From positions 1-56,187 of the IMG/VR virus record IMGVR_UViG_3300036852_000099: a stretch of DNA of 56,187 nt; one strand, 5' to 3'. This document shows, in pieces, positions 1 through 50,531 of this stretch. Made by a program: the position numbers and the translations under genes. Position 1 is the stretch's first letter; every line of letters starts with the position of its first letter. The notes beneath the pieces are model-generated. The model was not told the origin of the DNA. It made no database searches and saw only the letters and a program-made list of their open reading frames with translations. This DNA is from a virus. Taxonomy: Duplodnaviria; Caudoviricetes.

Positions 1-431
1 GGTGTGTCGGCTAGCTGGCGACTGGCGTGGGCGGATAGGTGCGCTCGGAACTGGCGATCCGATGGCGCGTGGATCGGGTACAGGGTCGTTTTCAGGTTGT
101 CGTATACTCCCTCCTTGTCTAGTGCTGTGAATGTCAGTGATCGGGCGCTCTGGCGATTGGGTATCGTGACCCGTAGCAGGTGACGACTGGAGCGGGTGTG
201 TGCACCGTGCGCCTTGGTTCGTGTGATGGTCAGTAGCCCAGCACGGGTTAGGTCGAGTAGAACCTGCGTGTGGCTGACCAGAGGACTGATGCCGTACTGC
301 TCATGCAGGGTGTCACGGCTGATGCGCTGGGTTACCCATTCGTATATCTGTCCTCGATTGTCTAGGGTGGTGGATCGTTCGTGGGCAGGGATCTCCTGCA
401 TGGTCGTGGTGACTCGGTATACCTTACTCAT
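1..431 (-). CDS. Hypothetical protein, 5' part (continues across the circular junction into 56130-56187)
   Basis: ATG at 431 preceded by AGGAG. Frame is open to base 1 (MSKVYRVTTT...QLADT) and continues in frame from the right end (PEEVVDLLVQTGLITIEES*). Confidence 0.8.
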   Translation of the reverse strand, partial: MSKVYRVTTTMQEIPAHERSTTLDNRGQIYEWVTQRISRDTLHEQYGISPLVSHTQVLLDLTRAGLLTITRTKAHGAHTRSSRHLLRVTIPNRQSARSLTFTALDKEGVYDNLKTTLYPIHAPSDRQFRAHLSAHASRQLADT

Positions 432-451
432 CGCTGCTCCTGTGTTGTCGC

Positions 452-497
452 AAAGAAAAGCCCGACTTCCATTAAAACACGGAAGACGGGCTTCTGT
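452..497 (-). terminator. Intrinsic terminator after the DUF932-like gene
   Basis: Minus strand reads AAGCCCGTCTTCC-loop-GGAAGTCGGGCTT followed by TTCTTT. Confidence 0.7.
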
Positions 498-513
498 CAA
501 GTTCAAGAAGGGA

Positions 514-1611
514 CTAGTTGCTGCTGAACGTCCGAGCCACTACGTAGGCCTTGGTGATGGTGGAGGCACGGTCACCAACGATGACACCAACCGCAGCGCT
601 TTCGATCTGGCCTTTGCGTTTGGTCTCGAATTCAGCGACTGCATTGTACCAGCCGAATGCCGTACCCTTCGCAGCGCGGGTGTCCATCCCTGTCCCGTCG
701 CCCTGGTACAGGGCATCGATCACGGAACGGGTCAACTGCACCTTCGCCTTTTTCTGCTCATATAGCTCCTCGTGCCGTTCCATGCTGACACCAGTGTAGG
801 ATGTCCACTCCGGATCGGGTGCAGGCGGCATCGGGTAGACCTGTTCAGTGAGCAGGGCGGCATCGCTACGCTGCAGCTTCTTATTGGCCAGCAGCAGCAG
901 AGCCTCGCGGGTTACCTCGGCAACTGTGGTGTAGTAGTCGTGGGTCTGGCGTAGCCACTTCTCCAGTTCGTCCAGTGCACCAGGGGTGTGGACGATGGCG
1001 TACTTGGGGCGGTTCGTTTCCTGTTCCAGTACGATATTCATCGTGTTCTGGCAGACGATCCGAACGTTGGTGCATCCGGTGTGGGCGGCTTTGTTGCTAT
1101 ACATCGGGCTGTGCAGGTAGAGGTACTGCTGAACCTCGTCGCCTTTCACGTCGAACGACTCCACCTTACTGGTGATGAAGAGTGTCTCACCCAAGCCTAG
1201 TACGCCCATCGTATCAATCGGTGTCTTCAGTTCACCACCGACATTGCCCCATGCCCGATCCACAACCTCAGCGGCCATCATGGGAGTGATGAGTTCGTAG
1301 TCGTGCCGGACGGGTGACCCGAAGATTCTGATCTGGTCGTCCTCTGGAACTGGCATCCGAACGATGATGCTATAGTCGGTGGGCATGGCGGCATCAGCAC
1401 CGCCGATATCGCCTGCGTTCTTCATCAGGTCGGATGCCCAGATGGTCAGTGCCACCTTGCGAACGTCGTAGTTGCCGACCTCTCCCAGCGCGTCTACCGC
1501 GTTCTTCTGCCCCATAGCGATGTAGCGGTTCTCGATGTCCCACCATGCAGGTGAGTCACCACCGTTGAAGAACCTCGCACCCAGGGCTGACTGTAGGATA
1601 TTAGCTGACAT
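514..1611 (-). CDS. DUF932-family phage early protein
   Basis: Motifs 'MGVLGLGETLFIT', 'YLYLHSP' and 'TNVRIVCQNT...HT', plus C-terminal 'GTAFGWYNAVAEF'. It has its own promoter and terminator. Confidence 0.75.
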   Translation of the reverse strand: MSANILQSALGARFFNGGDSPAWWDIENRYIAMGQKNAVDALGEVGNYDVRKVALTIWASDLMKNAGDIGGADAAMPTDYSIIVRMPVPEDDQIRIFGSPVRHDYELITPMMAAEVVDRAWGNVGGELKTPIDTMGVLGLGETLFITSKVESFDVKGDEVQQYLYLHSPMYSNKAAHTGCTNVRIVCQNTMNIVLEQETNRPKYAIVHTPGALDELEKWLRQTHDYYTTVAEVTREALLLLANKKLQRSDAALLTEQVYPMPPAPDPEWTSYTGVSMERHEELYEQKKAKVQLTRSVIDALYQGDGTGMDTRAAKGTAFGWYNAVAEFETKRKGQIESAAVGVIVGDRASTITKAYVVARTFSSN

Positions 1612-1659
1612 TTTAAGCTCCTCTGCTCTGCAGCGGTTTGCTGCTCTACTAGTACCTCC

Positions 1660-1688
1660 ATTTTACCACAGCTTCGCAGCGGAGTCAA
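1660..1688 (-). promoter_or_regulatory. Sigma70-type extended -10 promoter
   Basis: TTGACT-17 bp (ending TGTGG)-TAAAAT upstream of 514..1611. Confidence 0.8.
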
Positions 1689-2038
1689 GACTGTAAACAT
1701 GTGCAAAAGCATCGGGCTGGGATAGTCCTGATCTATCGGACAGATAGCGCCTAATAAATCGACTGAATAGAACAGGCGTGTGTATCGGGCTGATCTATCG
1801 GCGGCTATTGGTTGGATACATCCACTGGATAGAGCGACGACCCTGATGTGTGTGTCAGGGTCGTCTATGAGGAGTAAAAATGCGTCTGAGTTCGGTGGGC
1901 AGTCGTGAGCTAGGGGATGGGACGGTAGGAGGGCATCGCCAGAAACCCTGACCGCTGAACGGTCTCGCCCAGCCCCTAAACCCAACAACTACCCCCATTA
2001 AAACACAAGCCGCGCTCCGACACAAGTATTCAAGGGGA

Positions 2039-2632
2039 CTAGTAGTCCCGTTCCCACCTCCTAACATACAGCGTGTCAGTAGCAGGGTGGTAGGCGCAGG
2101 CCAGATAGCCCTCGTGCTCATAGTTCTGGTAGAACGGGTCGAAGTTCGAACCAGGGAATCTCCATCCGAACTTCTCTAGGGTGATGGTCTCAGTCCGGAC
2201 ATTGCGGTAGGTGGCGACTGGCGATATCGACTTCTCCTGCCCACGACGCTCCCAATCCTCACGCAGGAACAGCCGACCCATCACACGCCAGAACATGAAG
2301 GTAGGTGACTTGAACGCGGCCTTCCACAGTGCGATCACCCACTGCTGCCTGTACTCAGGGTCATCCAACTGGTCGATCACGTAGCGGTTAGGGAACAGGT
2401 ACAGCTTCAGCTTCTGCCAGCCTAGGATGGGGATATACACGACATCACCCTCGTTCCAGTGGGCTGGAATCTGGATATCAGGGTAGATTTGGATGCGGTG
2501 CTCGTTGACAGGACGTATCTTGGTGCTGTGGTTGATCTGTGGCCACTTTTCAGTTAGCTTGCCGTAGACTAGGTGGGCTACCAGCGCGTCCTCACTGATT
2601 AGCTCCATGATGGCCTTGTTGTAGTGCGTCAT
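2039..2632 (-). CDS. Hypothetical protein
   Basis: Part of a tightly packed minus-strand operon. Start MTHYN at 2632 overlaps the upstream stop (ATGA). Confidence 0.65.
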   Translation of the reverse strand: MTHYNKAIMELISEDALVAHLVYGKLTEKWPQINHSTKIRPVNEHRIQIYPDIQIPAHWNEGDVVYIPILGWQKLKLYLFPNRYVIDQLDDPEYRQQWVIALWKAAFKSPTFMFWRVMGRLFLREDWERRGQEKSISPVATYRNVRTETITLEKFGWRFPGSNFDPFYQNYEHEGYLACAYHPATDTLYVRRWERDY

Positions 2633-3189
2633 GTGCGGACTCCCATCATGGTCATCAGCTGCACCCTGCACTCGTTGTTCATGTGGATACGGATGCTTTT
2701 GGTGTCGAAGTCTACCTTCTGGTTTATCAGGTCGTGGGCGATCACCTCAGTGGGTGACCCGTCCATCTTCCTGCGTTGCCACTCGGCTATTGGGATGGGC
2801 TTCCGCATGTATCCAGCTGCAAGGATATACGCGTGGTTCAGTGTTACCCAGGTGTGACCGTAGCAGTTCAGCACGGCTGTGAAAGCGTTAAGGAAAGGCT
2901 CGGACACACGCCAGGGGCGGACAGTCAGCCCTTGCTTTAGCTGTTCAACGACCATATCGCGACAGGCGAAGAACGCTAGCTCAACCACGCTGGCTGAGGT
3001 CGGTTCGCTAGGATCAGCTTCCTTAATGAACAGTGGCCCACGCCACACCGCTGGTGTCAGCCTGTGACCCACCCATCCGTGCTTACGTAGGTCGTCGTTG
3101 GTGAGCGGGTCACCCACTATCGGGTACAACGTCCGGAACTCGCCCATTTTGTCTGTCTGTTCAACCAGCATCACTTTGTACATCGGCAT
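2629..3189 (-). CDS. Hypothetical protein
   Basis: 186-aa ORF with an AGGAGG RBS. Confidence 0.7.
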   Translation of the reverse strand: MPMYKVMLVEQTDKMGEFRTLYPIVGDPLTNDDLRKHGWVGHRLTPAVWRGPLFIKEADPSEPTSASVVELAFFACRDMVVEQLKQGLTVRPWRVSEPFLNAFTAVLNCYGHTWVTLNHAYILAAGYMRKPIPIAEWQRRKMDGSPTEVIAHDLINQKVDFDTKSIRIHMNNECRVQLMTMMGVRT

Positions 3190-3499
3190 TTAACCTCCTA
3201 TCTATCAGTCTACACACCGACTTGGCTACTTTGACGGGGATCGACGTACTCGGCTGTATGTCCCTGGTGTAGATGGGCAGGGGTATACTCATTCTCAAGT
3301 CCACCCCTAGCATGCTAACTGCACCCAGCAGCATCACCGGATACTTCCAGTGATCGTTGAAGTCCGGATTGTAACGCTGCCAGATGTACCCTGGTTGCAT
3401 GGTGATCGCTACCAGTCCGAACCTGTCGTAGATCAGCAGTTCCAGGAGACTGAGGCTAATCCTACAGTCGTCTGGCAGGTGTTCCACGATGGCGGTCAT
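3161..3499 (-). CDS. Hypothetical protein
   Basis: Start MTAIVEHL at 3499 follows AAGGAGG. The upstream part of the tracked 285-aa ORF overlaps other genes. Confidence 0.55.
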   Translation of the reverse strand: MTAIVEHLPDDCRISLSLLELLIYDRFGLVAITMQPGYIWQRYNPDFNDHWKYPVMLLGAVSMLGVDLRMSIPLPIYTRDIQPSTSIPVKVAKSVCRLIDRRLNADVQSDAG

Positions 3500-3791
3500 C
3501 TTCCCTCCTTTTGAGTCTGGCCTCACTGACTTTGGTGGAAAAGCACACCTTACACTCACTGCGCAGACCGTAGCGGCCTGCAGGCTTACCCTTACGGGTT
3601 CGACGGTAGAAATAGCGAGGGACTGCGGGGTACTCCAGCCCACAGCCCTTGCACTCGATAGTACGGGCACGACAGGATAGGCATACACGCTGCAGGTGCA
3701 GGTGTGGTCGCTCTGACAACCACCCTGCACTACCAGTGAACATGGCCTCCTCGTACTCGTTACCACAGGCACTGCAACTAGACATTGGCAT
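3462..3791 (-). CDS. Cys-rich zinc-finger protein
   Basis: Four CxxC pairs, including 'CKGC...FYRR...GLRSECKVC', a Zn-ribbon often found with HNH domains. Confidence 0.6.
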   Translation of the reverse strand: MPMSSCSACGNEYEEAMFTGSAGWLSERPHLHLQRVCLSCRARTIECKGCGLEYPAVPRYFYRRTRKGKPAGRYGLRSECKVCFSTKVSEARLKRREDDRHRGTPARRL

Positions 3792-5175
3792 TGACTTCCT
3801 CTATAGCCCGAATGCAGGCTAACACGCAGGGTTCGATCACGTGGCGCTCGTTGAATGCCCCGTTCACATTCAAGCTGTCCGGCCAGCGCGATGCTATGAC
3901 GTGCCTCAGCGACTGCATGATGGGGTAGTTCTTCACTAACTCGCCTATGGTGTGGTGCAGCGTGGTGCGATCCGAGTGGCGTGTGCGTAGGGCATACGAC
4001 AGGATGGTGGATGACCACACCCGCGAGTCGTTGAATACGTCACTATCGTACTTCATCTTCAGGGCAGTGACCGCGTTATTCAGGCTGTCCAGCATGTAGG
4101 CCGTGATCGAGGATACCTGCTGCCAGACCACCCGACGCTGGGCTGAGTCGTCCAGGGTTCGCATGTCGATCTGGTCGGCTGTAATGCCCCATGCACCAGT
4201 ACACAGGCTGTGGACTAGCTGCGACAGTGACGACAGCTGCTCCCACGTGGCTGGGTTGTGCTTGTGCGGCATGGCCGATGACCCGACTACACCGGATTCG
4301 TCCCACCACTCGCCCTCACTGTACAGGAATCGGGCGGTGATGGCCAGTCGGTGAATAGCCGCTGCTACTCGGTCTATCAGTGCAAGTAAGGCGTACTCGT
4401 TGTGGCGCGGGGCAGTCTGGGTGGCGTGTTTGGCCAGTTCCATGACCGTTGGTGGTATACGCATGTGATCACACACGGATGCTAACACGTCGCGTTCGAA
4501 CAAGGTAGAGGATAGGTCTACCTCGCGACGGATGAAACGACGCTGGACGTGGCTCGTGCCAACTGCACCGCGCACCGACTTGGCCTGAACCTTGAACTTC
4601 TCCAGGTCGAGAAAGATGCCCTGGAACTCGACCATGTGACCCATCAGCCGGAAGCCCTGCGTGATAGGCTCGGCTACCTGCATGTGGGTGTAACCTCGGC
4701 ACGGGTAGTCCTTAGTTGCTGCCACCTGTCGTGCCATCATCCGCACAACCCGCCGGAGCAGGTGTCGAATCTCAGTGACAGTCTGGGCTATGCGAACCGA
4801 GTCGACCAGATCGACCACATCGCTGCTCGTCATATCCAGGTGTACAAGGTCGTGTGGCATCGAACCACCGTCCTTTTCAACTAGGCGGTGGACTGCCCCT
4901 TGTGCCAGTTGGCGCAGGGCTTCGACCTCGTGACCGACCTCGCGTTCGTGGGTACGGACTGCCCTTACTAGTGCGTCCAAGCCCAAGTCGAACCACTCAT
5001 CGTTGTACTCCAGCAAGGCTTCAGCGGTAGTGACGAATGACAGGTCGCTTATACCTGCATAGTGCTTGGACTGGCACAAGGCCACCATCGCCCAGACCTG
5101 CAGCATCAGGCTGTACCGTTGCCCGTCATCCCAGATGTTGTCCATGTCGTTGGTAGTGTAGCGGCTGGCGTTCAT
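3778..5175 (-). CDS. purB: Adenylosuccinate lyase (PurB-like, fumarase/ASL superfamily)
   Basis: N-terminal 'SRY', 'HLDMTSSD', 'GYTHMQVAEPIT', 'GAVGT', 'TQTAPR' and the signature 'GSSAMPHKHNP..E'. Probable start MNASRY at 5175 (465 aa). Confidence 0.9.
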   Translation of the reverse strand: MNASRYTTNDMDNIWDDGQRYSLMLQVWAMVALCQSKHYAGISDLSFVTTAEALLEYNDEWFDLGLDALVRAVRTHEREVGHEVEALRQLAQGAVHRLVEKDGGSMPHDLVHLDMTSSDVVDLVDSVRIAQTVTEIRHLLRRVVRMMARQVAATKDYPCRGYTHMQVAEPITQGFRLMGHMVEFQGIFLDLEKFKVQAKSVRGAVGTSHVQRRFIRREVDLSSTLFERDVLASVCDHMRIPPTVMELAKHATQTAPRHNEYALLALIDRVAAAIHRLAITARFLYSEGEWWDESGVVGSSAMPHKHNPATWEQLSSLSQLVHSLCTGAWGITADQIDMRTLDDSAQRRVVWQQVSSITAYMLDSLNNAVTALKMKYDSDVFNDSRVWSSTILSYALRTRHSDRTTLHHTIGELVKNYPIMQSLRHVIASRWPDSLNVNGAFNERHVIEPCVLACIRAIEEVNANV

Positions 5176-5465
5176 ACCCTCACCTTGAAGCGGGGTACGA
5201 CGCACACCAAATAGCTCTGGCGCGGCATGTAGGGTGGGGATTCGACTACAACGACAAGACCACCCTCCCCCAAATCGCCCACGATCCTGCCCTCTGTCCA
5301 TACGTCCTCCGTCTGGCCTACGGTCTGGCCTCCACCGTCGATAGTGAGTACGTGGCATGGTTCAGTACTCCTAGCCCATGCCTGCCGCGCTGCATCGAAG
5401 AGGTTCGCACCGCCTTCTTTGCGCATAAACTCAGGTCGGTTGTCCGTGTGGTTTCCGTTGTTCAT
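5172..5465 (-). CDS. Hypothetical protein
   Basis: 4-bp overlaps with both neighbours; RBS present. Confidence 0.6.
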   Translation of the reverse strand: MNNGNHTDNRPEFMRKEGGANLFDAARQAWARSTEPCHVLTIDGGGQTVGQTEDVWTEGRIVGDLGEGGLVVVVESPPYMPRQSYLVCVVPRFKVRV

Positions 5466-5725
5466 TGTGTATCTCCTCTGTAGTTAACTAGGGTTACCTG
5501 ATACTGCACCATGTCACCTGTCCTGGTGTCCAGAATCTCCTCGGACAGTCTAGCATCACCCTCACTGGTGATGATCGGGTCTGACCACTGAACCGCCTCA
5601 GTTTGTGGGTGGATCAAGCGGATCACCTTTTCGGCATCCTCGAACCGAACCAGGGCGATGCCTGTTCCAGGTTCTTCGTCCGTTCGTCGCATTTGATAGT
5701 ACCAGTTGCTGCTTTGGTGTGCCAT
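5462..5725 (-). CDS. Hypothetical protein
   Basis: TAATG coupling and a GGAGG RBS. Confidence 0.6.
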   Translation of the reverse strand: MAHQSSNWYYQMRRTDEEPGTGIALVRFEDAEKVIRLIHPQTEAVQWSDPIITSEGDARLSEEILDTRTGDMVQYQVTLVNYRGDTQ

Positions 5726-5985
5726 TAAACCTCCACCGTTCCTATGTCCAGAAAGTACACGTCCTCAATAGGACACAGCAGATGGTGACGACGATCCATA
5801 GCTAGAACAGTAGCGTACCATCTACCCAGACAGCCGTTCCAGTATGGGCTTAGGTAGTACCCGCGTTCCGTGTCACCAGTCTCTATGTCCACGCACAGCA
5901 CCCTGAACATGTACCGTTCACCATTCCAGGGAATCAGATCAGGCCTAGGTTGCCACTCCCGATGCTTAGTCTGTGAGGTTTCCAT
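5725..5985 (-). CDS. Hypothetical protein
   Basis: Operon packing. Confidence 0.55.
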   Translation of the reverse strand: METSQTKHREWQPRPDLIPWNGERYMFRVLCVDIETGDTERGYYLSPYWNGCLGRWYATVLAMDRRHHLLCPIEDVYFLDIGTVEV

Positions 5986-6238
5986 CTTTGTCCCACTTTA
6001 TCAACAGTCCGGTGGTCGTGTGACCGACACCAGACCCGTCCGGATTCACGAACTTGAACCTGCAGCGATGACCCTGAACCATCATCTCCTCCTCAGTACC
6101 CTCGATCAGGGGTATACGATGACCGCCGATGTTCAGGTGGTCGCGGGTCGGTGGTGTCCTGTTTGCCAGACCTATGATAAGGTCAGGCTTGAGGACTACC
6201 CTCTTGGGCGGCTGGTCGTTCTGATGGGAGTCGTCCAT
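5966..6238 (-). CDS. Hypothetical protein
   Basis: Operon packing. Confidence 0.55.
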   Translation of the reverse strand: MDDSHQNDQPPKRVVLKPDLIIGLANRTPPTRDHLNIGGHRIPLIEGTEEEMMVQGHRCRFKFVNPDGSGVGHTTTGLLIKWDKDGNLTD

Positions 6239-6407
6239 GTGAGTCCCTTAACTCTAGATCGTACTTCTTGAATAGCTGGCTAACACGCTGGAAGGATATC
6301 CCGTACTCCTTCGCTGTCTGGCGTAGGGTGTGGCCAGCCATGTAAAAGTCGTGCATCTGTACTGCCCGTGCACGGTGGCGACTACGCTGGGCTTCCTGTC
6401 GGGTCAT
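6183..6407 (-). CDS. Small helix-turn-helix DNA-binding protein
   Basis: HTH pattern 'AGHTLRQTAKEYGISFQRVSQL'. Confidence 0.65.
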   Translation of the reverse strand: MTRQEAQRSRHRARAVQMHDFYMAGHTLRQTAKEYGISFQRVSQLFKKYDLELRDSHGRLPSERPAAQEGSPQA

Positions 6408-6415
6408 ACGTGCCA

Positions 6416-7024
6416 CTATTCGTGCTCCAGTAGGCGCTTGGCCAGTTCCAGGGTGTGTCCGAATAGGTAGTCCCAAGCCACATCGACGTTGTAGGCGTAC
6501 TTGCCTGTGACCTCTGCAGCGGGTTTGCCCTGTGCCGACTGGATCACCGACCATGCCAAACTCACGTGGTTCAGGTCGAACTCACCATCGGGCTGGAGGG
6601 GCAGGTCACCATCCAATGCCCACGCGGTGTCAGACGTTCCATCGGGTGTGAACAGCCGACCTTCCTTTGTGGCTTGGTGGAAGGTGGCCTCAGTGCGGGT
6701 ATTGCCATCACCTGAGTTGTAGGGCTTCACACCCGCCTGCTCCAGGTAGTGATCGCCTAGTGCGCTGTAGGCATCACCTAGGTTAGCCCGTATCTCCTCC
6801 TCAGTAGGAACGTGGCCATGCAGCGCGTCTATTTCCGCCTGATGTGGATGGCGTGGGCGGGTGTCACCACGCAGGTGACGACTAAGGCGTGGGTCGTCCG
6901 GACGCAAGCGCTTGGTCTGGTGTTCAGGTTCATAGTCTGGCGTTGGTGTGTTCTCGGTGTTGCCCTCGTACACAGGCTCGGCGGGTTCAGTCGGCTGGTC
7001 GTCGTTCACTGGCATGTCGCTCAT
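6416..7024 (-). CDS. Hypothetical acidic protein
   Basis: 202-aa ORF with an AGGAGG RBS. Confidence 0.65.
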   Translation of the reverse strand: MSDMPVNDDQPTEPAEPVYEGNTENTPTPDYEPEHQTKRLRPDDPRLSRHLRGDTRPRHPHQAEIDALHGHVPTEEEIRANLGDAYSALGDHYLEQAGVKPYNSGDGNTRTEATFHQATKEGRLFTPDGTSDTAWALDGDLPLQPDGEFDLNHVSLAWSVIQSAQGKPAAEVTGKYAYNVDVAWDYLFGHTLELAKRLLEHE

Positions 7025-7641
7025 TTTGTGCCTCCTATGGCATCAACTAACTCGCCACCATTTTCGATTTTGTGGCCTTTCGACGCGGCCATTGCGATCA
7101 GGAAGTCCCGCGTTAGGTGGCGATGACAGAACTTCCCTGGTTTACAGTAGCACTGCAAGACTATTGGGTAGTCAACGGCGATGATGTCCCAGAACCTCTG
7201 CGGTGTAGCTAGGTAGCGCCTATTCAGCAGTTCGCTGTACAGGTCGCGAAAGCCCTCCTCGCTTACTCGTTCGTACTTGGCGTAACGCGGATCAGTGTCA
7301 CCCGACCAACGCTTATAACCAGCTATGAGCCACCAGTCTGGTGCAAGCCAGGGGTAGTAGGCCTCGTCACCGACTGCGGCATCGCTGTATGTGACCGAGT
7401 AGATGAGGTATGGCTTCAGCGGATCAGACCAGGGCGCTACAGCCTGCCCATACTGGCATGTGTAGATTCGTTCGGTGACCTTGGCGGGGATACGCGGTGG
7501 CTGTCCCACGTTTGCAGCGCCTTTGCGCGGCTTCTGCTGCTGGGCTGGTCGGCTGTCACGGATACGGCTTTTGTCCATGATCTCGACCTCTGGCAGTTCC
7601 AGCCTGTCACGCGATTTGACGAACTTGCTAAAGTCTACCAT
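7021..7641 (-). CDS. Hypothetical protein with a CxC-x5-CH motif (DUF4326-like C-terminus)
   Basis: 'VLQCYCKPGKFCHRHL'; GGAGG RBS before MVDFSK. Confidence 0.55.
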   Translation of the reverse strand: MVDFSKFVKSRDRLELPEVEIMDKSRIRDSRPAQQQKPRKGAANVGQPPRIPAKVTERIYTCQYGQAVAPWSDPLKPYLIYSVTYSDAAVGDEAYYPWLAPDWWLIAGYKRWSGDTDPRYAKYERVSEEGFRDLYSELLNRRYLATPQRFWDIIAVDYPIVLQCYCKPGKFCHRHLTRDFLIAMAASKGHKIENGGELVDAIGGTK

Positions 7642-7643
7642 AG

Positions 7644-7868
7644 CTAACCCCTCCACAGGTCACTAGGTGGTGGTTCAGTCGGCACGACTGGTATGCGACG
7701 AACCTCCTCGATCCATCGGTACATGGCCACACCCACGTCCAGCCAGATGGCCATGACCAGTGACTTGATAAGCAGATGCACACCCAGCATCTCTAGTAGC
7801 AGGATGCCAGCCATCAGGTACAGCGATAGCAGTGCGTAGCGTAGCAGGATGCTGACCAGGGTTCTCAT
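7644..7868 (-). CDS. Small membrane protein
   Basis: Two hydrophobic segments. Confidence 0.55.
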   Translation of the reverse strand: MRTLVSILLRYALLSLYLMAGILLLEMLGVHLLIKSLVMAIWLDVGVAMYRWIEEVRRIPVVPTEPPPSDLWRG

Positions 7869-8272
7869 AGCTGCACCATGACGATAACCGACCTATCCTT
7901 ATCTACGTCCACCCTGATGTACTGGTGCAGCACGTCCTCCGATACGAACATCGACTCCCTACGGTCTACGCTGCCATCGTTCCACAGCAGGACTGTCGTA
8001 CCACTGGCTAGATTGCCATCCATCACATCCGGAATCAGCCGGATCGACACTAGGCGTTTGGTCATGCGAGGCTGGCGCATTAGTGTCTGATAGCCTGTGA
8101 ACACAGCCAGTTGTGCACGGACGCGGATGTACTCAGTCACTAGGTGATCCATCTGGTCGACTAAATCGGGCGATCCTGGAAGCCTAGCCTCCCAGGGTAC
8201 ACGTTCATCCACCCGCCTCAGTTTGTCCAGTAGGAGGTTCAGGTTCTGCTCCGGTGTGTTCATTCGGTTCAC
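7865..8272 (-). CDS. Hypothetical protein
   Basis: Operon packing. Confidence 0.6.
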   Translation of the reverse strand: MNRMNTPEQNLNLLLDKLRRVDERVPWEARLPGSPDLVDQMDHLVTEYIRVRAQLAVFTGYQTLMRQPRMTKRLVSIRLIPDVMDGNLASGTTVLLWNDGSVDRRESMFVSEDVLHQYIRVDVDKDRSVIVMVQL

Positions 8273-8780
8273 GTTCTCTCATCTCCCTTTGTAGTCTGGC
8301 TAGGGCGAGGACTTCCTCACCGTAGCGCTTAACAAACTCGACCACACTCATGTACTGGATCTCGGTTTCAGGTGCGCTGTTCATGACACGAGTAGTTCGT
8401 CCAGTGATGCGCGACAGGTCGCACACGTCCCAATCAGCCACGCCTAGTCCCTTAGCTGCTTCGCGGGTGGGTTGCACCAATCTAGGGTGTATGACGCACA
8501 GCCAGTCCTTCTTGATGCCGCGCTGCTCCAGTGGGTCTTTGAGCATCTCGACTGCCTTCATCAGGGTGTCATAGTCCAGCGACGGGCTGATGTGGCTGGC
8601 ACTGTCAGCCGTGCTGTAGTTTGGTGAGTCCAAGCGATACGCCTGCAACACACCATCGCCATCCCTGACTGGGTACGGGTTGGCCGACTTAGGTAGTGAC
8701 ACACCACAGTTGGTGCAAGTGTAGTCACCGCTGGGCGTTGGGACTAGGAAGCCCGTGTGACAGAACTGGCAGATCGTCAT
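8205..8780 (-). CDS. Hypothetical protein with an N-terminal Zn-ribbon
   Basis: 'CQFC...CTNC'. Confidence 0.6.
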   Translation of the reverse strand: MTICQFCHTGFLVPTPSGDYTCTNCGVSLPKSANPYPVRDGDGVLQAYRLDSPNYSTADSASHISPSLDYDTLMKAVEMLKDPLEQRGIKKDWLCVIHPRLVQPTREAAKGLGVADWDVCDLSRITGRTTRVMNSAPETEIQYMSVVEFVKRYGEEVLALARLQREMREREPNEHTGAEPEPPTGQTEAGG

Positions 8781-9004
8781 CGGAGTTTGTTCCTCCCTGC
8801 TTGGGTGGCGTAGTAAGCATCCTCACGTTGGTAGCGGGTATGAGCCACATAGCCATACTGGAACAGCTGCTCCATGATCTCGACCACCTCTGGCGTACGC
8901 GCTGGGTAAGGCTCACCATAGTGATCCTGCAAGTTGATGCAGCGCTGCAGGTGGTCTTGCTGCAGGGGTGTCAGTTCGACTGGTTCACGCAGTTTGCCTG
9001 TCAT
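8777..9004 (-). CDS. Hypothetical protein (possible winged helix)
   Basis: ATGA overlaps; 'MEQLFQYGYV...YYATQAGR'. Confidence 0.55.
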   Translation of the reverse strand: MTGKLREPVELTPLQQDHLQRCINLQDHYGEPYPARTPEVVEIMEQLFQYGYVAHTRYQREDAYYATQAGRNKLR

Positions 9005-9312
9005 TGACCATACACCTCGAATGGGTCACGAACGTCGAACGTCCGGACTGGTAGAATGTGGGCGCTGGGTGTGTCGAAGATGGTCGGGTCGTGCTGGACG
9101 ACTACCGTCATCAGTCGCTCGTTTAATCCAGGTGGTAACGGATGCATCGAGTCATACACGATCCACTGTCCACCTGTGTGGTCGTGCTCCAGGTATAGCT
9201 CGATATGGTCGGTCATGCCGAGGTAGGCCACCCACGAGGATGGGTCAAATCGGAGGATGGTAGGCGGTCTACCATGCACGTTAGAGACTTCGATCAGGAT
9301 AGGCTGTGGCAT
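9001..9312 (-). CDS. Hypothetical protein, first gene of the 9.3-2.0 kb operon
   Basis: AAGGAG RBS directly downstream of the promoter at 9341-9369. Confidence 0.65.
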   Translation of the reverse strand: MPQPILIEVSNVHGRPPTILRFDPSSWVAYLGMTDHIELYLEHDHTGGQWIVYDSMHPLPPGLNERLMTVVVQHDPTIFDTPSAHILPVRTFDVRDPFEVYGQ

Positions 9313-9340
9313 TCGGACTGCTCCTTTCGTTTACGCTTCC

Positions 9341-9369
9341 ATTTTACCACACCTTGGCTGTCGCGTCAA
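9341..9369 (-). promoter_or_regulatory. Sigma70-type extended -10 promoter
   Basis: TTGACG-17 bp-(TGTGG)TAAAAT. Confidence 0.8.
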
Positions 9370-9429
9370 TGACGGAACGGAAAGCCGGACTGAATAAGGG
9401 ATCGTGCACGGCTGGTCGGTGTCTAGGTT

Positions 9430-9736
9430 GCTCCCCGTGCAAAGGCCGTAGCAGACCGTAGCAAAAGTTCGCATATACGCGTAGCAGAGTTTACATAGGT
9501 TCGTAGCAAGCTCCCCGTGCAAAGCACCCCCTAAAGGGAGGAAGAAAAGAGGTAGACACAAAGCGCGGCGTTCACCGGAAGATAGCAGGTCGTAGGACGC
9601 TGCTGCTTATCTACCGAGTGTACTACCGCTGGGCGCTCGGATCGCTGGGAACGTCAAGCTATGCACGGGGCTTGCTACGGTCATGCACGGCGAAAAGGCG
9701 TGTTCTGCTACGGTTCTGCTACAAGGGGCGTAGCAG
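9430..9736. repeat. Non-coding cluster of convergent CGTAGCA/CGTGCA repeats (candidate origin)
   Basis: 15-bp direct repeat GCTCCCCGTGCAAAG at 9430 and 9510. About six CGT(A)GCA units on the left and about five inverted TGC(T)ACG units on the right. Confidence 0.7.
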
Positions 9737-9971
9737 CGTGTTCTATGCCTGTTCTGCTAGACACAAACGGAGGGGTATTCTGGGGCTGGGAGGGGTATAC
9801 GGGTCAAGCCAGTGATCGGAATATGGACGGACGACCCCCCTGACACTTTCGGCTGGTGCTCTCCCCCACTCCACCCCGCATGCAGTCACGTGTCACGGAA
9901 ACACACGAAGGCGCTCTCGGCCAGTTGTGACCGGAGCGCCTTGTCGCGTTGAACGGAAGTACCGCCGGAGG

Positions 9972-10343
9972 TCAGCGCGGGTGCTTCTTGTTGCGGCGTT
10001 GCTTCCCATCGTGGCGACGGATGTCCGCTGCACCTGAACCCGTGCCGCGATCCACTGACCTGCTCTGCTTTTGGTGGGTCTTGTAGTGGGTGTGGCGCTG
10101 GCTAGGTTTGATCCAGATCGTCATCACGGGGTAGGTGTCGGCGGTGTGGCTAACCTCCAGGTTCAGCCCTGCGATGAGGTAGTTGATGTCGCTGATCTCG
10201 CCCTCCGTGAGGCCACGTGGGTCGCGGGTGCTGACCATGTACCCTCCTGGTGTCCGGATGTCGTCGAAGACACGGGCTATCTTGCCCACACCTACCACCT
10301 CATCCACGATACCCTGCAGTGTCCACTTCGTTTGTGCGTCCAT
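9972..10343 (-). CDS. Hypothetical early protein with a basic tail
   Basis: Hairpin plus AAGGATCGCC leader; terminator-like hairpin downstream at 9908-9942. Confidence 0.6.
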   Translation of the reverse strand: MDAQTKWTLQGIVDEVVGVGKIARVFDDIRTPGGYMVSTRDPRGLTEGEISDINYLIAGLNLEVSHTADTYPVMTIWIKPSQRHTHYKTHQKQSRSVDRGTGSGAADIRRHDGKQRRNKKHPR

Positions 10344-10406
10344 CTTGGCGATCCTTTCCAATAGGGGTGGGGTCGAAATTGCCCCACCCGTGTATCCCTG
10401 GTTGAA

Positions 10407-10916
10407 CTAGAAGCCCATCGACTCCAGCCATGCGCTGGTAGTGTCCTCAGTGCGGACGGTGGGTTCTTTGCCACCGAACTGGTACATTCCGGTGATCTGC
10501 AGGTGCTTGGGGAATGACCCGATGGGGCTGGTGTAGGTGATGCCTTTGGCGATCTTTTCGACTGCCTTGACTGAACCACCGACCATCGTGGCCAGATTCT
10601 GGAAGCTCATGCCATCCTCACGGGCGGCACGGATGGTGCTGACCTGCGAGTCCGTGTATTTGCGTCCGGCTTGGGTCTGTTCCCATTGGGCGGCTACACT
10701 GGCATATCGGGCTTTCCCAGCTTCAGCGACCTGCCCACATTCCTGCAGGGTCTTGGTCGATTCGTGACCTGCGATCACCAGCGACATGTACGGGCGATCC
10801 TGGTACGGGTTGAAGAGGGTCTCGCCTGTGTAGTGGGTGTACAGGCGGTGCATGGCCTCGGTGCTCATTTTCTTGAGGCTCTGCGCTGAGTGGGTGGTGT
10901 TGAACTTGCGTGACAT
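10407..10916 (-). CDS. HTH-containing early protein
   Basis: 'KYTDSQVSTIRAAREDGMSFQNLATMVGGSVKAVEKI'. Confidence 0.7.
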   Translation of the reverse strand: MSRKFNTTHSAQSLKKMSTEAMHRLYTHYTGETLFNPYQDRPYMSLVIAGHESTKTLQECGQVAEAGKARYASVAAQWEQTQAGRKYTDSQVSTIRAAREDGMSFQNLATMVGGSVKAVEKIAKGITYTSPIGSFPKHLQITGMYQFGGKEPTVRTEDTTSAWLESMGF

Positions 10917-10964
10917 TGGCGATGTCTCCTACTGATGAGGCGGTTGCCTCTATTCGATATTTCT

Positions 10965-10994
10965 ATTATACCACATATTGGCATATCGAGTCAA
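10965..10994 (-). promoter_or_regulatory. Sigma70-type extended -10 promoter
   Basis: TTGACT-18 bp-(TGTGG)TATAAT. Confidence 0.8.
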
Positions 10995-11595: not shown

Positions 11596-11602
11596 AGTGG
11601 GC

Positions 11603-45949: not shown

Positions 45950-46232
45950 ACTCTCCCCTAATAGCTATAGCCTCTGCCTCATCAGCAGTTCGAATTAAAC
46001 CGATACGTGCACCTGCAGCTTTCCATTCCAGCAGCTTCATGCACTGAGCGATGGTCGGGTGGTCGTCATAGCTCTTTTTGGCCTCCATAGCGAAAGCCCG
46101 ACCCTGGTACGATCCAACGAGGTCTGGTTCACCCAGACGCGAGAAGGGTGAGCCGTGAATCTTGATCACGACACACCCCAATTTCTTTAATCGCGCCAGG
46201 GCAGCATCGACCACTGCCTTTTCTAGCGGCAT
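45882..46232 (-). CDS. VRR-NUC nuclease
   Basis: 'GEPDL...AMEAK...TIAQ'. Confidence 0.85.
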   Translation of the reverse strand: MPLEKAVVDAALARLKKLGCVVIKIHGSPFSRLGEPDLVGSYQGRAFAMEAKKSYDDHPTIAQCMKLLEWKAAGARIGLIRTADEAEAIAIRGEYVGLTEILRIQDETLGTPEDRT

Positions 46233-46963
46233 TAGACCTCCGCTGGCACTTTACGCCATGCACCCAAGCTACGGGCTAGTACCAGGAGGCAATTCTCCAT
46301 GTCAGGGTACACCCACGTATCCAGGTCATGCGCTTCGACGTGCTTGGCTAGTTCGTCCTTGTCACCCCACACCACGACTGTCTTGCCCAGCGACTTGGCC
46401 ATCTCGATCTCACGGATAGTACCAAATCCGCGTTTGTCGGTCATGTTGACCACCATGCCCTGACAGCTGGCCAGTGCAGCGCGGTTGATCTGGCTGATGA
46501 AGACCCTAGGCAGCGGTTGGTTGTGTCCTACCTGGAAGGCGGTAGACGGGTCATAGCTGGTGATGCCATAGTTGGCCAAGGTCGACTTGGCGTGTTTCCT
46601 CCAGGTCTTGGCGTATAGCTCATCAACCGCGTCGATGCTCCCTGCCAGATAGACGGTAGGATGTGGGTGCTGCTCGTCGCCTAGGATCGGGATTTCCTCA
46701 CTGCCCCATGACCCATCCAGCAGCATCTTCCCGATTAGGCCGTAGTTCAGCACGTCCAAGAACGTATCCTCGATACCCTCGAAGTTAGGGGCGTATGCCC
46801 CTGGTCGGGTGAGGTTTAGCAGGCGGTGGATTTTGTCAGTCAGCCGGACTGCCACACCGTATACACCAGTCTTACTGATGTTGTCACTGCCATAGTCGGC
46901 ATTCTTGCGCTCCATCAGGTCGAGCGCGTCCTTGATGATCTTCTCAGCGGCGGCTTTGTTCAT
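46232..46963 (-). CDS. DUF1599/Nmad1 domain fused to a nucleoside 2'-deoxyribosyltransferase/N-glycosidase-like domain
   Basis: N-terminal 'RKNADYG...RLTDKIHRL...IEDTFLDVLNY'; C-terminal 'VYLAGSI...YDP...GFGTIREIEMAKSLGKTVV'. Confidence 0.75.
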   Translation of the reverse strand: MNKAAAEKIIKDALDLMERKNADYGSDNISKTGVYGVAVRLTDKIHRLLNLTRPGAYAPNFEGIEDTFLDVLNYGLIGKMLLDGSWGSEEIPILGDEQHPHPTVYLAGSIDAVDELYAKTWRKHAKSTLANYGITSYDPSTAFQVGHNQPLPRVFISQINRAALASCQGMVVNMTDKRGFGTIREIEMAKSLGKTVVVWGDKDELAKHVEAHDLDTWVYPDMENCLLVLARSLGAWRKVPAEV

Positions 46964-47144
46964 CGTTCTGTTCCCTTTCATGTGACTCGTAGCAGTGTGC
47001 GTGAATGTCCTGGTCGTGCACCCAGGAGTATGCGATCTGGTCGACGTGCACATCGACTTCGTGCTTGCAGTAGGGGCAGATTGGGAATACGCTGTCGAAC
47101 ATGCCCTCATCGCCCTTGTCCCACATATCTCCGATGTTTATCAC
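46944..47144 (-). CDS. Small Zn-binding protein
   Basis: 'CPYC...HAHC'; fills the gap in the operon. Confidence 0.55.
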   Translation of the reverse strand: MINIGDMWDKGDEGMFDSVFPICPYCKHEVDVHVDQIAYSWVHDQDIHAHCYESHEREQNDEQSRR

Positions 47145-47629
47145 TTTCCTGTACTCCCAAACCCAGCGCTACCACGCTCGGTGTCCTTAGTCGCGTACTG
47201 GAACGCGTCGATTGGCATGAACTCCCACTGCACTGGAATCACCAGATGGTGGAAAAGTATCTGAGCCAGCCTAGTCCCTTTCGGTACTATGACCGTCTTG
47301 CCGTTGGGATTGGACACACCGATGAATAGCTCACCTGTGTACCCCTGGTCGATTATGCCCTCCTGCACCTGCAGATGCCACGTGCGAAAGGTCGAACTGC
47401 GATTGGTGATCCGGCCATACACCCCATCGGGCATCCGGATATGCACCCCTGTGTGAACGTCCACAAAGCTCCCTGGAGGGATCTCGATGTGTTCGATGGT
47501 GTGCAGGTCGTAGCCTGCATCACCCTTATACTTCCGTGTAGGCTGGCACGTGTCCAGATTGGCAGGGGCGAATATGACCGGAGGCGGCGCTAGCACCCAC
47601 AGCGCAAATCGCCTGAGTAGTTGCCTCAC
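47141..47629 (-). CDS. dut: Trimeric dUTPase
   Basis: All five motifs: AGYDL, RSS, GIIDQGYTGE, RLAQ and RGSAGFGSTG. Confidence 0.9.
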   Translation of the reverse strand: MRQLLRRFALWVLAPPPVIFAPANLDTCQPTRKYKGDAGYDLHTIEHIEIPPGSFVDVHTGVHIRMPDGVYGRITNRSSTFRTWHLQVQEGIIDQGYTGELFIGVSNPNGKTVIVPKGTRLAQILFHHLVIPVQWEFMPIDAFQYATKDTERGSAGFGSTGK

Positions 47630-48723
47630 AGGTCTTCCCCTGTCTCGACTACCTGAAATCCCTCGCCACCTGTGCCGACCAGCGACACCGGAGTACCAAA
47701 CCGCGCTTCCACGTAGTCGATGAATGCACGGGCGGTCTGGCTGAGTTCATGCTCCAGGGTCTTGCCACGATCCTGAGGACTGATGTAGTCCATGAAGGTG
47801 ATCGCGATGGAAGTAGGTGCGTTTAACAGCACTGACTGGTCGACCAAATCCTCGTCCCACCGACCAACACGGCGTACCTTTTTGGTGACGGTGGTCTTTT
47901 CCACGACTGTCTCACCAATTAACTCCGACAGTTGATCCCACGTTACCTCATCCTTCAGGTCACCACTGTTCCCAGCCACACGGATAGGGTAGGTGCGGCA
48001 TACCAGCATTACCTGATCCACGTGCTGGGGCGGGATGCCAGCATCAGCGGCCATCTGTGCGGCGTTCGTGCCGTTGCTGGTCACATATGGCCACTGGCCA
48101 TGAATAAGGTCGAGACCACTGCCCTGTGTACCCTCCAGGAGGATATCTTGGCCGAGGTTGCGCTGCTGCTGCAGGTAGCGCGGGGTGTCGTCGTGGAGGC
48201 ACTGCGACAGCTTACTGCCATCGCTGAACTCAACATCACCCTCCTGTTTGATGTACTCGGCAACAGTCAGGAACTTCAGCGGATCGCGCATCAGGCGATC
48301 ACGTCGTGCTGCACCGACACCCTTACCAGTCGAACCGATACGCTGGTGTAGCTCACCCTGTACACCTCCTTCCTCGTCCATGTGCCATTGGGATATCACC
48401 CCACAGCGGCTGTCCACGATCAGGCGGTGGGTGAAATACGGGTCGATTTCCAGTATCTCGTTAACTTCGCGTTTCAGGATGTCCATCTCGATCAGACCAC
48501 CCCGACCAATCACCAGGATCGCGTTAGGGTTCACCCAGCCACATGGGACAGTCTGCATGACCCGCTTCACACCCTGGTGCATGAAAGTGTGACCTGCGTT
48601 CGTGCCACCCGTCCGGACATGGACATTGTAGCGATCCGCGATATAGGCCACGATTACACCCTTGCCCTCCGACCCAAACTGCCCTCCGACTAGTGCGAGG
48701 ACGTGTCCTGTTCCTTTAGCCAT
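47626..48723 (-). CDS. purZ: 2-aminoadenylosuccinate synthetase, PurZ0 type
   Basis: PurA fold with 'GGQFGSEGKG' (Ser replaces the PurA catalytic Asp), 'NAGHT', 'IGSTGKG', 'EGTQG', 'RTYPIRVAGNSG', 'TTVTKKVRRV' and 'TFMD'. Confidence 0.88.
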   Translation of the reverse strand: MAKGTGHVLALVGGQFGSEGKGVIVAYIADRYNVHVRTGGTNAGHTFMHQGVKRVMQTVPCGWVNPNAILVIGRGGLIEMDILKREVNEILEIDPYFTHRLIVDSRCGVISQWHMDEEGGVQGELHQRIGSTGKGVGAARRDRLMRDPLKFLTVAEYIKQEGDVEFSDGSKLSQCLHDDTPRYLQQQRNLGQDILLEGTQGSGLDLIHGQWPYVTSNGTNAAQMAADAGIPPQHVDQVMLVCRTYPIRVAGNSGDLKDEVTWDQLSELIGETVVEKTTVTKKVRRVGRWDEDLVDQSVLLNAPTSIAITFMDYISPQDRGKTLEHELSQTARAFIDYVEARFGTPVSLVGTGGEGFQVVETGEDL

Positions 48724-48728
48724 TGTCT

Positions 48729-50483
48729 TTACTCCGTCATTAGTTGATAGGGCTGGAGTTCGCTCCAGCGTTTGCCGACTGAAACATCCACCTTAAACCG
48801 TACCTTCCACTCCTGGTCGGGCGGTGGTGGGATAGTGACCATAGTCTCTGCAGCGGCATCGATCAGCCAGGGCTTATCCTCCGGTATCTCCATTACTAGA
48901 CTGTCGTGAACGTGTAGTAGTTGGTGTAGACCCTCACCACGCAGGTTGCGCCACACGTTAGTAGCAGCAATCCGCATCATCTCGGCCACACCACCCTGAA
49001 TCAGGCCAGAACTGGCCGTGTTCTCGTAGTTGTGCTCATCGAATCGGCGCAGTCGTCCAGTGAACATCTGGATATACCCGTCGCGCTTGGCAGCACCCAG
49101 ACAGGCTTGGTACAGCCGCTTCATTTCGGGGTGCACCTTGTGGTACTGGTTCAGGTACTCCCTAGCCTGTTTGATGCTAACCTTCAGGTCATTCGCCAGT
49201 GCCTTGTCGCCTATGCCGTACTGCATCGAGAAGTTCAGCCGCTTTGCAGCGTCATAGTCGATGTTGACCCACGCGGCGGTTTCCTTATGGACGTTTACAC
49301 CGTTGTTGATCATGCGCAGCATATTGGTGGCGTTGGCGTAGTGTGCGCCTAGGTAGATCTCCGCCTGCTTATAGTCGGCCACCACGAACAGGTGACCAGG
49401 ACGAGCCACGAAGACCTTCTTGATGCCAGATCGCGGGTCGTTGATGTCGTCTTTGATCTGGCGTGGGATCGCCTGCAGGTTAGGCTCACTGCAGGACAAC
49501 CGACCCGTAGCCGTACCTGTCAGGTTCAGGTTAGGGTGGATCACCCCATCAGCATCCGCATGCTCCAGGAAGGCCTCGTAGTAGGCACTCTTCATTTTCA
49601 CATGGCGACGGTATCGGATGATCTCGTCTACTCCAGGTTTGTCGAGCGTTTCCAGGATATCAACAGCACTGCTACTCACACCAAAGAGAGCCTGCACCTG
49701 CTTGGGGCTGTTAGGGTTGACCGGATAGCCGACTATACGAGCCAGCGCGATCTCGGCCTCCTTCTTTCCGTCGATACTGTCGTGTATGCTCTGGCGTGTT
49801 TGTCGTTTGTCCAGCAGCATACCCCTGCGCTCAATGTCCACTACAGCCAGTTCGAAGACGTTAGTCTCCTGCCACAGCCGATACAGCCCAGAGTCCGCTA
49901 GCTTTTCAGCGTAGAAATCACGGAGTCGTCTGGTGTACAGTACGTCGTCCTCGGCATAGGCACTGACCATACTGGCAGGCAACTTCCACATCTGGCCTTT
50001 GTCACCTACGTGCATACTGGCACGGCGCTTGGTGTAGCCTGCTGCTTTCAGTGCGGCCAGCAGTTCTTCGGATTCATCCGCTGCAGTTGGGTCGATGTAC
50101 TTACGGGCGAGGTACTTCAGGGCGTGGCTGTGTTCATTCTCGTTGTACAGGTGGGCAGCTAACATCGCGTCCTCTATCCTGGTCGGGAACGCGAATCCTT
50201 CATTCAGCAGGTACTTGATATCGAACTTACCATTCCAGAACAGCAGGGTCTTGGGCAGTGCCAGTGCCATGCGCAGCGCGTCCATCTGGCGTGGGTCAAG
50301 GTTCTCGCCTTCCCCATGCCGGAATGGGAAGTAGTAGGACTCATTATCAGCTTCTATGGCGATACCGCAGATCAGGTCACCACCATAGGTGTCCAGTCCT
50401 GTTGTTTCCAAGTCAACAGTGATACGTTCGCAGTCCCAAACGTGCACCATCGCATCATAGAAGTTGTCGCTATTTACCAGCAT
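48729..50483 (-). CDS. Family A DNA polymerase with 3'-5' exonuclease (DpoZ candidate)
   Basis: Exo motifs 'DLETTG', 'NGKFD' and 'YAEDD'; polymerase motifs 'DYKQAE', 'KRLNFSMQYG' and 'VHDS'; no 5'-3' exonuclease; adjacent to purZ. Confidence 0.92.
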   Translation of the reverse strand: MLVNSDNFYDAMVHVWDCERITVDLETTGLDTYGGDLICGIAIEADNESYYFPFRHGEGENLDPRQMDALRMALALPKTLLFWNGKFDIKYLLNEGFAFPTRIEDAMLAAHLYNENEHSHALKYLARKYIDPTAADESEELLAALKAAGYTKRRASMHVGDKGQMWKLPASMVSAYAEDDVLYTRRLRDFYAEKLADSGLYRLWQETNVFELAVVDIERRGMLLDKRQTRQSIHDSIDGKKEAEIALARIVGYPVNPNSPKQVQALFGVSSSAVDILETLDKPGVDEIIRYRRHVKMKSAYYEAFLEHADADGVIHPNLNLTGTATGRLSCSEPNLQAIPRQIKDDINDPRSGIKKVFVARPGHLFVVADYKQAEIYLGAHYANATNMLRMINNGVNVHKETAAWVNIDYDAAKRLNFSMQYGIGDKALANDLKVSIKQAREYLNQYHKVHPEMKRLYQACLGAAKRDGYIQMFTGRLRRFDEHNYENTASSGLIQGGVAEMMRIAATNVWRNLRGEGLHQLLHVHDSLVMEIPEDKPWLIDAAAETMVTIPPPPDQEWKVRFKVDVSVGKRWSELQPYQLMTE

Positions 50484-50531
50484 GGTCGTGTCCTTTGGGT
50501 AGGGGTGGTGGCTGTCCCACCCCAATAGAGG

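Follow-up and report, generated by a model that had tools for sequence, protein, structure and literature searches.

The window analysed here is the whole of IMG/VR record IMGVR_UViG_3300036852_000099 (Duplodnaviria; Caudoviricetes), a stretch of 56,187 bp that is classed as linear and has a CheckV completeness of 69%. On its minus strand, at 3778..5175, it carries a gene for a 465-amino-acid (aa) homologue of adenylosuccinate lyase (ASL, or PurB), here called P0001, and on the same strand, at 47626..48723, a gene for a homologue of the 2-amino-adenylosuccinate synthetase PurZ. As called, the open reading frame (ORF) of the lyase is open over 3778..5358, and in the translation the ASL portion begins at ATG 5175. 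We place the start at this codon because a Shine-Dalgarno-like sequence, AAGGTGAGGG, read from the sequence at 5177..5186 (minus strand), lies directly 5' of it, because the TGA stop of the preceding ORF overlaps it in an ATGA, and because alignments of homologues to P0001 start at residues 3–5. The preceding ORF (5172..5465, minus strand) encodes 97 aa without a family match, and the overlap of its stop with the lyase start suggests translational coupling of the two genes in one operon. The identical P0001 protein was found on two contigs, each of about 56 kb.

P0001 is confirmed as a member of the ASL/PurB family. The Pfam model Lyase_1 matches residues 11–318 with 70 bits (cut-off 27, E 3e-19), the top NCBIfam model is purB TIGR00928 with 150.2 bits (equivalog cut-off 326.2), and all other NCBIfam models score ≤64 bits, with weak matches to pcaB, XcbD and nitrosuccinate lyase among them. 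Seventeen ASL sequences from the PDB match at E ≤ 3e-12, while the PHROG match is to PHROG 1703, a group annotated as function unknown, and a Pfam scan of the 465-aa protein gave no match to ADSL_C. ASLs are homotetramers in which active sites are shared between subunits, and they act on adenylosuccinate (SAMP) as well as on succinylaminoimidazole carboxamide ribotide (SAICAR). The initial annotation had described a full-length ASL of about 465 aa with the motifs GYTH and GSSAMPHKHNP, and both are indeed present, at residues 161–164 and 298–308 of P0001, together with further ASL residues: the N-terminal R-Y, H82, H112-x-x-x-T116-S117, Q253/R257 and RTLDDSAQRR at 339–348. H164, S299, S300, K305, N307 and E312 are invariant in 115 compared ASLs and are retained in P0001; the catalytic roles that we assign to the His and Ser-loop residues are presumed from the ASL literature. 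An AlphaFold2 model built from a 101-sequence alignment has a mean pLDDT of 91 and a predicted template modelling (TM) score of 0.91, and is helical up to residue 464. In a Foldseek search of the PDB, every one of the matches listed was an ASL (E 8.5e-20 to 3.8e-17), with a query-normalised TM score of 0.67–0.77. Because these alignments span about 445–496 columns, the C-terminal domain appears to be present in the model.

Terminase, portal and head genes of the window lie on the plus strand, and the minus strand carries a replication and nucleotide module composed of a primase-polymerase (prim-pol), a PD-(D/E)XK nuclease, AAA_24 and DUF669 proteins, a family-A polymerase, the PurA-family synthetase, a dUTPase-fold protein, a DUF1599/nucleoside 2-deoxyribosyltransferase (NDT)-like protein and an SNF2 helicase. 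The synthetase, whose presence had also been noted at the outset, is a PurZ of the Ser type. It matches Pfam Adenylsucc_synt (6e-59) and the PHROG '2-aminooxy adenylosuccinate synthetase' (1.5e-73), and in its GSEGKG motif a Ser occupies the position of PurA Asp13, a replacement that, according to PMC12884076, each of the 147 phage sequences in the PurZ group shows. A FastTree phylogeny places it on the Ghobes/Hiyaa (PurZ0) side of the Ser-type clade, with a support of only 87 and with Acinetobacter phage Barton as the sole reference from the other side. The family-A DNA polymerase with a 3'-5' exonuclease domain (48729..50525, minus strand; Pfam) adjoins purZ and is DpoZ-like by position only. 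Directly downstream of purZ are the dUTPase-fold gene (47141..47629, minus strand; Pfam and PHROG) and a gene for a protein with a DUF1599-like N-terminal part and an NDT-like part (46232..47110, minus strand; Pfam scores near or under cut-off, 27.6 versus 28.8 for NDT), which occupy the positions given for DutZ and DmtZ in the same source. There, dutZ is reported in all 98 PurZ0 genomes and dmtZ in 85 of them, and by analogy the layout of the window fits PurZ0-type genomes. Among the 36 minus-strand ORFs scanned in the window, neither PurA nor any other gene for de novo purine synthesis was found. In record coordinates the lyase gene and purZ are 42 kb apart. The earlier estimate of 11 kb around a circle would hold only if the ends of the record joined, and no overlap or repeat was found at the ends of the 56,187-bp record, so that circularity is unsupported.

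To see how often viral ASL genes occur together with such synthetases, we scanned IMG/VR by pattern with an alignment of divergent ASLs, which gave 139 contigs with relatives; the best 80 of the 139 were kept, and 72 of these records were searched whole for PF00709, the PurA/PurZ family. A PF00709 gene was present in 37 of the 72 ASL-bearing records (18/42 plus 19/30) and in 12 of the 13 that are ≥90% complete, and a PurA-family ORF lay in the flank of five of the eight ASL loci whose whole records were not searched. The co-occurring synthetases were PurZ of the Ser type in 26 of 37 cases, and among 42 distinct synthetases the residue at the Asp13 position was Ser in 26, Asp in 15 and His in one. 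In the 26 Ser-type records the distance between the ASL gene and purZ was ≤1 kb in 6, ≤5 kb in 13 and ≤10 kb in 16, and several viral loci repeat the PolA-PurZ-Dut module together with an ASL. For comparison, the published background in the available text of PMC12884076 is 481 PF00709 homologues in 53,887 NCBI viruses. Viral ASL genes are thus strongly tied to PurA-family/PurZ genes, and a viral ASL, where present, usually accompanies a PurA-family synthetase.

Two further kinds of loci were encountered among the ASL-bearing records. At L017, L018, L019, L022, L020, L040, L051, L052, L065 and L077, three of which are labelled as giant-virus metagenome-assembled genomes, the ASL lies beside a short PurA-like synthetase of the Asp type; as judged from their sequences, such loci would be a virus-encoded branch from inosine monophosphate to AMP, distinct from the pairing with PurZ. 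In L093 (G019, 821 aa) and L090 (G039, 584 aa), Ser-type PurZ homologues are encoded in unusually long frames that may be fusions.

The description of P0001 as otherwise divergent was borne out. The protein is at most 34% identical to anything in four large collections. Its top match among 5.8 billion proteins in a word-indexed search is 30% identical, and when 1.84 billion cluster representatives were scanned in full with HMMER, 1207 proteins matched at E ≤ 0.001, the nearest of which, P0121, has 30% identity (E 1e-49). When 35 matches from the representative search were scanned, 23 scored under the purB cut-off. A tblastn search of 50,697 GenBank phage records gave 18 records, all with <30% identity and many of them short and unannotated; megablast with 6 kb of the window gave no match, and neither did the IMG/VR pattern scan with P0001 alone as query. 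Of the nearest proteins, P0121, P0122 and P0126 are encoded on contigs of 2, 47 and 51 kb. A metagenome scan for ASL relatives yielded 80 loci, with a canonical PurA in the flanks of 12 and a Ser-type PurZ in the flanks of none (0/80). The best long metagenome match, L124, is 34% identical to P0001 and of cellular origin, being encoded next to Era, IF-2, RibF and ThyX. The best matches on cellular genome contigs are 24–33% identical, and all nearest cellular sequences, at 24–34%, are spread over Chloroflexia, Gottesmanbacteria, Planctomycetota, Chlamydiae, Alphaproteobacteria and others. A recent capture of the gene from a host was considered and rejected, given that the cellular matches are only 24–33% identical and come from many phyla.

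Phylogenies of the ASLs were computed with FastTree and with a short IQ-TREE search under LG+G4. The initial annotation had called for a phylogeny against cellular PurB, and P0001 does not nest within a recent cellular clade. In the IQ-TREE result it groups with P0121, P0126 and P0134 with a support of 99 in the Shimodaira–Hasegawa-like approximate likelihood ratio test (SH-aLRT), and this group sits inside a group of nine rows (SH-aLRT 90). The only other member of the nine-row group with a known genomic context is L005, from record G004 (57 kb, 96% complete), where 24 bp separate the end of the ASL gene from PolA, and a Ser-type PurZ is encoded on the same strand at a distance of 2.9 kb from the ASL. 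The end branch of P0001 is long, 1.64–1.98 changes per column versus medians of 0.56–0.57 in both trees, and its exact placement is therefore unsure. On the opposite half of the tree from P0001 is a mostly viral clade (SH-aLRT 99) with 18 rows, of which 16 are PurZ-linked, and to it belong the Hiyaa type and Ghobes gp36. Given the well-supported branches, the PurZ-linked label has to change at least 11 times in the FastTree phylogeny and at least 7 times in that from IQ-TREE; by these sequence trees, the PurZ-linked viral ASLs are polyphyletic.

The closest PurZ sequences, 57–59% identical, are encoded on IMG/VR fragments that match the replication module of the window gene for gene. A Lyase_1 gene was found in one of the five syntenic fragments searched, G074 (loci L207, L211 and L212), which also spans the prim-pol; its PurZ is 59% identical to that of the window, and more than 10 replication genes are common to both. 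The G074 lyase gene, at L212:3584-5041, is a canonical Bacillota-like purB that scores 563 bits on TIGR00928 and is embedded in the phage, between a helix-turn-helix gene and terminase/portal genes. Its product shares 58% identity with a Bacillus PurB and only 27% with P0001, and belongs to a different ASL lineage. That a single phage lineage has ASLs from two unrelated lineages suggests repeated selection for the function.

To examine substrate specificity, residues were compared at 36 positions in 28 PurZ-linked, 16 PurA-linked, 18 cellular, 38 unlinked viral and 15 unplaced ASLs, the positions being those of residues for catalysis and binding, plus each of the 12 conserved columns at which P0001 differs. 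P0001 matches 45 of the 57 columns that are ≥80% conserved among 100 other ASLs. H82, T116, H164, Q253, R257 and G298-S299-S300, as well as K305, N307, E312, S344 and R348, are invariant in all five comparison groups and kept in P0001, and R5, Y6, H112, S117 and R339, positions at which 1–6 of the 115 sequences deviate, are kept as well. The departures at conserved columns are D83E, G114D, L267I, D280T, E292D, Q296V, R319Q, L337D, E338M, P352Q, F355S and G400H. Two of them, in which Asp replaces the Gly of H-x-G-x-T-S (G114D) and Met replaces the Glu before R339 (E338M), are near-unique among the 115 compared ASLs and adjoin residues that we take to be substrate-binding in ASL; G114D, E338M and R319Q are private to P0001. 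At the 36 tabulated positions we found no residue signature common to the PurZ-linked ASLs. Since no substitution recurs among these, the dedicated deoxy/2-amino specificity that the initial annotation had assigned to P0001 is without sequence support; it is unproven, with evidence neither for nor against it. A more specific proposal would be that P0001 and its long-branch group (P0121, P0126, P0134 and the neighbouring L005 group) are 'PurB-Z' lyases re-tuned for dSMP (N6-succino-2-amino-2'-deoxyadenylate) and discriminating against adenylosuccinate and SAICAR. We regard this as a doubtful proposition. If it were true, the phage would pull flux to 2-amino-2'-deoxyadenosine monophosphate (dZMP) without feeding the A pool, whose depletion is the supposed task of the Dut-like and NDT-like enzymes, and G114D within H-x-G-x-T-S and E338M before R339 would be part of the re-tuning.

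In the characterised pathway for the synthesis of Z (2-aminoadenine) of phages S-2L, PhiVC8 and SH-Ab 15497, PurZ makes dSMP, from which an ASL releases fumarate to give dZMP (available text of PMC12884076 and PMC12783734). We estimate a probability of roughly 60% that P0001 does the lyase step after the phage's own PurZ in Z synthesis. What speaks for it is comparative: the preserved catalytic set and predicted fold, the PurZ0-type surroundings of the Ser-type PurZ, the linkage between viral ASL and PurZ genes, the context of L005, the second ASL lineage in G074 and the lyases annotated in cultured PurZ0-type phages. According to this reading, P0001 would be an active enzyme of the ASL family, transcribed with the early genes by the host polymerase; it would act after the phage PurZ and by beta-elimination of fumarate convert its presumed substrate dSMP into dZMP, which kinases would raise to the triphosphate dZTP for the adjacent family-A polymerase. 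The benefit to the phage could be that its own copy adds capacity to the host PurB or gives independence from it.

A number of observations weigh against this assignment. The score of P0001 is far under the purB equivalog cut-off (150 versus 326 bits), which we ascribe to an ASL homologue too divergent for automatic naming as purB, and the 12 changed conserved columns could mean an altered substrate or a weakened activity, among them G114D (Gly in 94/100 sequences), E338M (Glu in 98/100) and R319Q (Arg in 91/100). The lyase gene is not beside purZ. Linkage was counted in records that had been selected by their ASL gene, with a published figure as background and no control set of our own, and 11 of the 37 co-occurring synthetases are of the Asp or His type, so that viral ASLs also pair with ordinary PurA. 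The co-occurrence with purZ that the initial annotation proposed to look for is thus clear when starting from the ASL, with 37 of 72 records and 26 Ser-type synthetases, but weak in the reverse direction. IMG/VR holds at least 565 stretches with PurZ relatives; of the best 80, 42 on contigs ≥20 kb were searched for Lyase_1, and only 4 of the 42 records, or 3 of the 20 that are ≥90% complete, carry such a gene. Because only 4 of 42 do, the ASL is optional for the Z pathway, an accessory rather than a requirement, and the earlier statement that the gene completes the pathway is overstated; what is supported is that a PurZ phage encodes an ASL homologue of full length whose catalytic residues are intact. 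GenBank likewise has 11 records of 8 phages in which the match is annotated as (PurB-like) adenylosuccinate lyase, compared with 218 in which a PurZ-like match occurs. The PurB of the host is enough in the characterised Z systems, as far as the available text of PMC12884076, PMC12783734 and bioRxiv 10.1101/2025.10.22.683976 goes, and our literature search found no biochemical evidence for P0001 or any other phage ASL.

Several alternative roles have to be considered. ASLs are normally bifunctional, and P0001 could be a general helper of purine synthesis that carries out the ordinary PurB reactions, from SAICAR to aminoimidazole carboxamide ribotide (AICAR) and from adenylosuccinate to AMP, raising the host purine supply without any tie to Z. 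Such a function would agree with the Asp- and His-type synthetases described above, 6 of the 11 being within 1 kb of the ASL, with the five further loci (three giant-virus-labelled) that have Asp-type neighbours, with the annotated purB of Microcystis phage MaAM05 and with the large distance between the ASL gene and purZ in the window. It is harder to reconcile with the lack of PurA and other purine de novo genes among the scanned minus-strand ORFs, where PurZ is the only succinyl-nucleotide-forming enzyme found in the window, with the predominance of the Ser type among the co-occurring synthetases (26/37), and with the nearest ASL of known context, L005, which is inside a Z cluster. We therefore consider a purely general function rather unlikely, and because one enzyme could do both, it is compatible with a role in Z synthesis.

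The divergence of P0001 raises two other possibilities. The ASL superfamily includes enzymes with other substrates, and P0001 could be a neofunctionalised lyase that cleaves another N-succinyl or related compound, for example in another route of nucleotide or DNA modification among the unannotated early genes. The long end branch, the near-unique G114D and E338M, the score under the purB cut-off with Pfam ADSL_C undetected, the weak pcaB, XcbD and nitrosuccinate lyase matches and the fact that most neighbouring ORFs are without a family match speak for this possibility. Nevertheless, purB is the best model by far (150 bits versus ≤64), all structural matches listed are ASLs, the ASL-typical N-terminal R-Y and RTLDDSxxRR are kept, and the window yielded no partner ligase apart from PurZ, which makes a change of substrate class improbable. 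Alternatively, the gene might derive from a cellular purB that the phage captured and that now drifts under relaxed selection, inactive or in decay. Extreme divergence, the lack of a close relative in the collections searched and substitutions at near-invariant columns would fit such drift, but the 465-codon frame is intact and has a ribosome-binding site and a coupled start, all catalytic residues are kept, the full-length fold is predicted with confidence and the identical protein occurs on two contigs of about 56 kb; we regard decay as very improbable.

With regard to the assignment of P0001 to early expression, the region around the lyase gene was inspected for promoters. Positions 1-17000 contain nine sigma-70-like promoter matches, all on the minus strand, which makes the earlier placement of the gene among small early genes plausible, but the count is not above the 9.3 expected from shuffled sequence and is therefore no excess. 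The nearest such site upstream of the ASL, found by consensus match only, is at 9341..9369 (minus strand), with TTGACG, a 17-nt spacer and TAAAAT, and with TG before the second hexamer. Between 9308 and 16595 the window has a repeated intergenic element of about 45–50 nt that falls into two families, D1 and D2 (5 and 4 copies). Read on the minus strand, these repeats contain a near-consensus sigma-70 promoter with an extended -10 element (TTGACA/T, 17–18 nt, TGnTATAAT), and near-consensus extended -10 sites are found at six places, 9369, 10994, 11551, 12108, 13192 and 16595. The six repeat promoters are probably a battery of early promoters before small ORFs without a family match. Most ORFs neighbouring the ASL are also without a family match. 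One in the same gene run (7021-7656, minus strand) encodes a 211-aa protein with a borderline score of 26.4 bits (cut-off 27) on the 'active DUF488-N3' subclade model and a match to PHROG 2450 (function unknown). In the window (514-1611, minus strand) as in G004 (L005:6921-7973), the gene for a DUF932 protein lies within a few genes of the ASL, with a gene order relative to transcription that differs between the two. On the plus strand, a 1484-aa ORF (18830-23284) combines a portal match (residues 62–415) with head-morphogenesis/minor-head matches (about 1030–1226).

If P0001 serves Z synthesis, it bears on a step that published accounts of the pathway assign to the host (PMC12884076, PMC12783734 and bioRxiv 10.1101/2025.10.22.683976, in their available text). 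In S-2L, PhiVC8 and SH-Ab 15497 the lyase is that of the host, whereas the window phage and a minority of others (4/42 PurZ records) bring their own. From the window, and from how ASL and PurZ genes recur as pairs in viral contigs, often side by side, we propose that some Z phages, a minority, encode a lyase themselves, which would have been acquired several times independently and would point to a step at which host supply can limit Z synthesis. Full-text literature searches, with supplements outside their reach, found no paper that discusses a phage-encoded lyase for Z synthesis; neither 'PurB' nor 'lyase' is used in the main text of PMC12884076, the Figure 7 legend of which allows for 'uncharacterized phage proteins'. 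As natural variants, the divergent lyases, with P0001 among the most divergent, would form a panel for the handling of 2-amino/2'-deoxy substrates by ASL and could be of use for host-independent dZTP pathways.

Compared with cellular PurB/ADSL of the short TIGR00928 type (Staphylococcus aureus 2X75, Thermotoga maritima 1C3C, human 2J91/2VD6), P0001 has the same three-domain full-length fold and the same catalytic His, Ser-loop and conserved binding residues. It differs from them in its identity, which is 16–22% in structural alignments and ≤34% to any cellular sequence, in its score under the equivalog cut-off, in the 12 changed conserved columns, and in being encoded by a phage with PurZ in which no PurA was found. 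Closer in context are the lyases annotated in GenBank for the Gordonia phages Ghobes (gp36), Sapo, Frizzle and Archimedes and for the Streptomyces phages Hiyaa (gp76), Spocter, Keanu and Galactica, all eight of which are also in the GenBank list of PurZ matches. Like the window, phages of the Ghobes/Hiyaa type have, besides an ASL homologue, a PurZ of the Ser type together with PolA and a dUTPase-like gene. Hiyaa gp76, a 'PurB-like adenylosuccinate lyase', is 4.4 kb from its own PurZ and scores 335 bits on the purB model. Ghobes gp36, an 'adenylosuccinate lyase' of 377 aa, scores 152 bits, as low as P0001, with a match that ends at residue 316; its gene is 7.4 kb from purZ0 in the opposite transcription unit, so that in Ghobes, as in the window, the lyase gene is several kb from purZ and in another unit. 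In contrast, P0001 is only 25–26% identical to the lyases of this type and falls in a different clade. The purB annotated in Microcystis phage MaAM05 is, like P0001, a phage-borne ASL homologue, and is 28% identical to it over about half the length. The initial annotation had known of no characterised lyase of this kind; PurB-like lyases in cultured Z phages are already annotated, and P0001 is a very divergent new example of them rather than a new kind.

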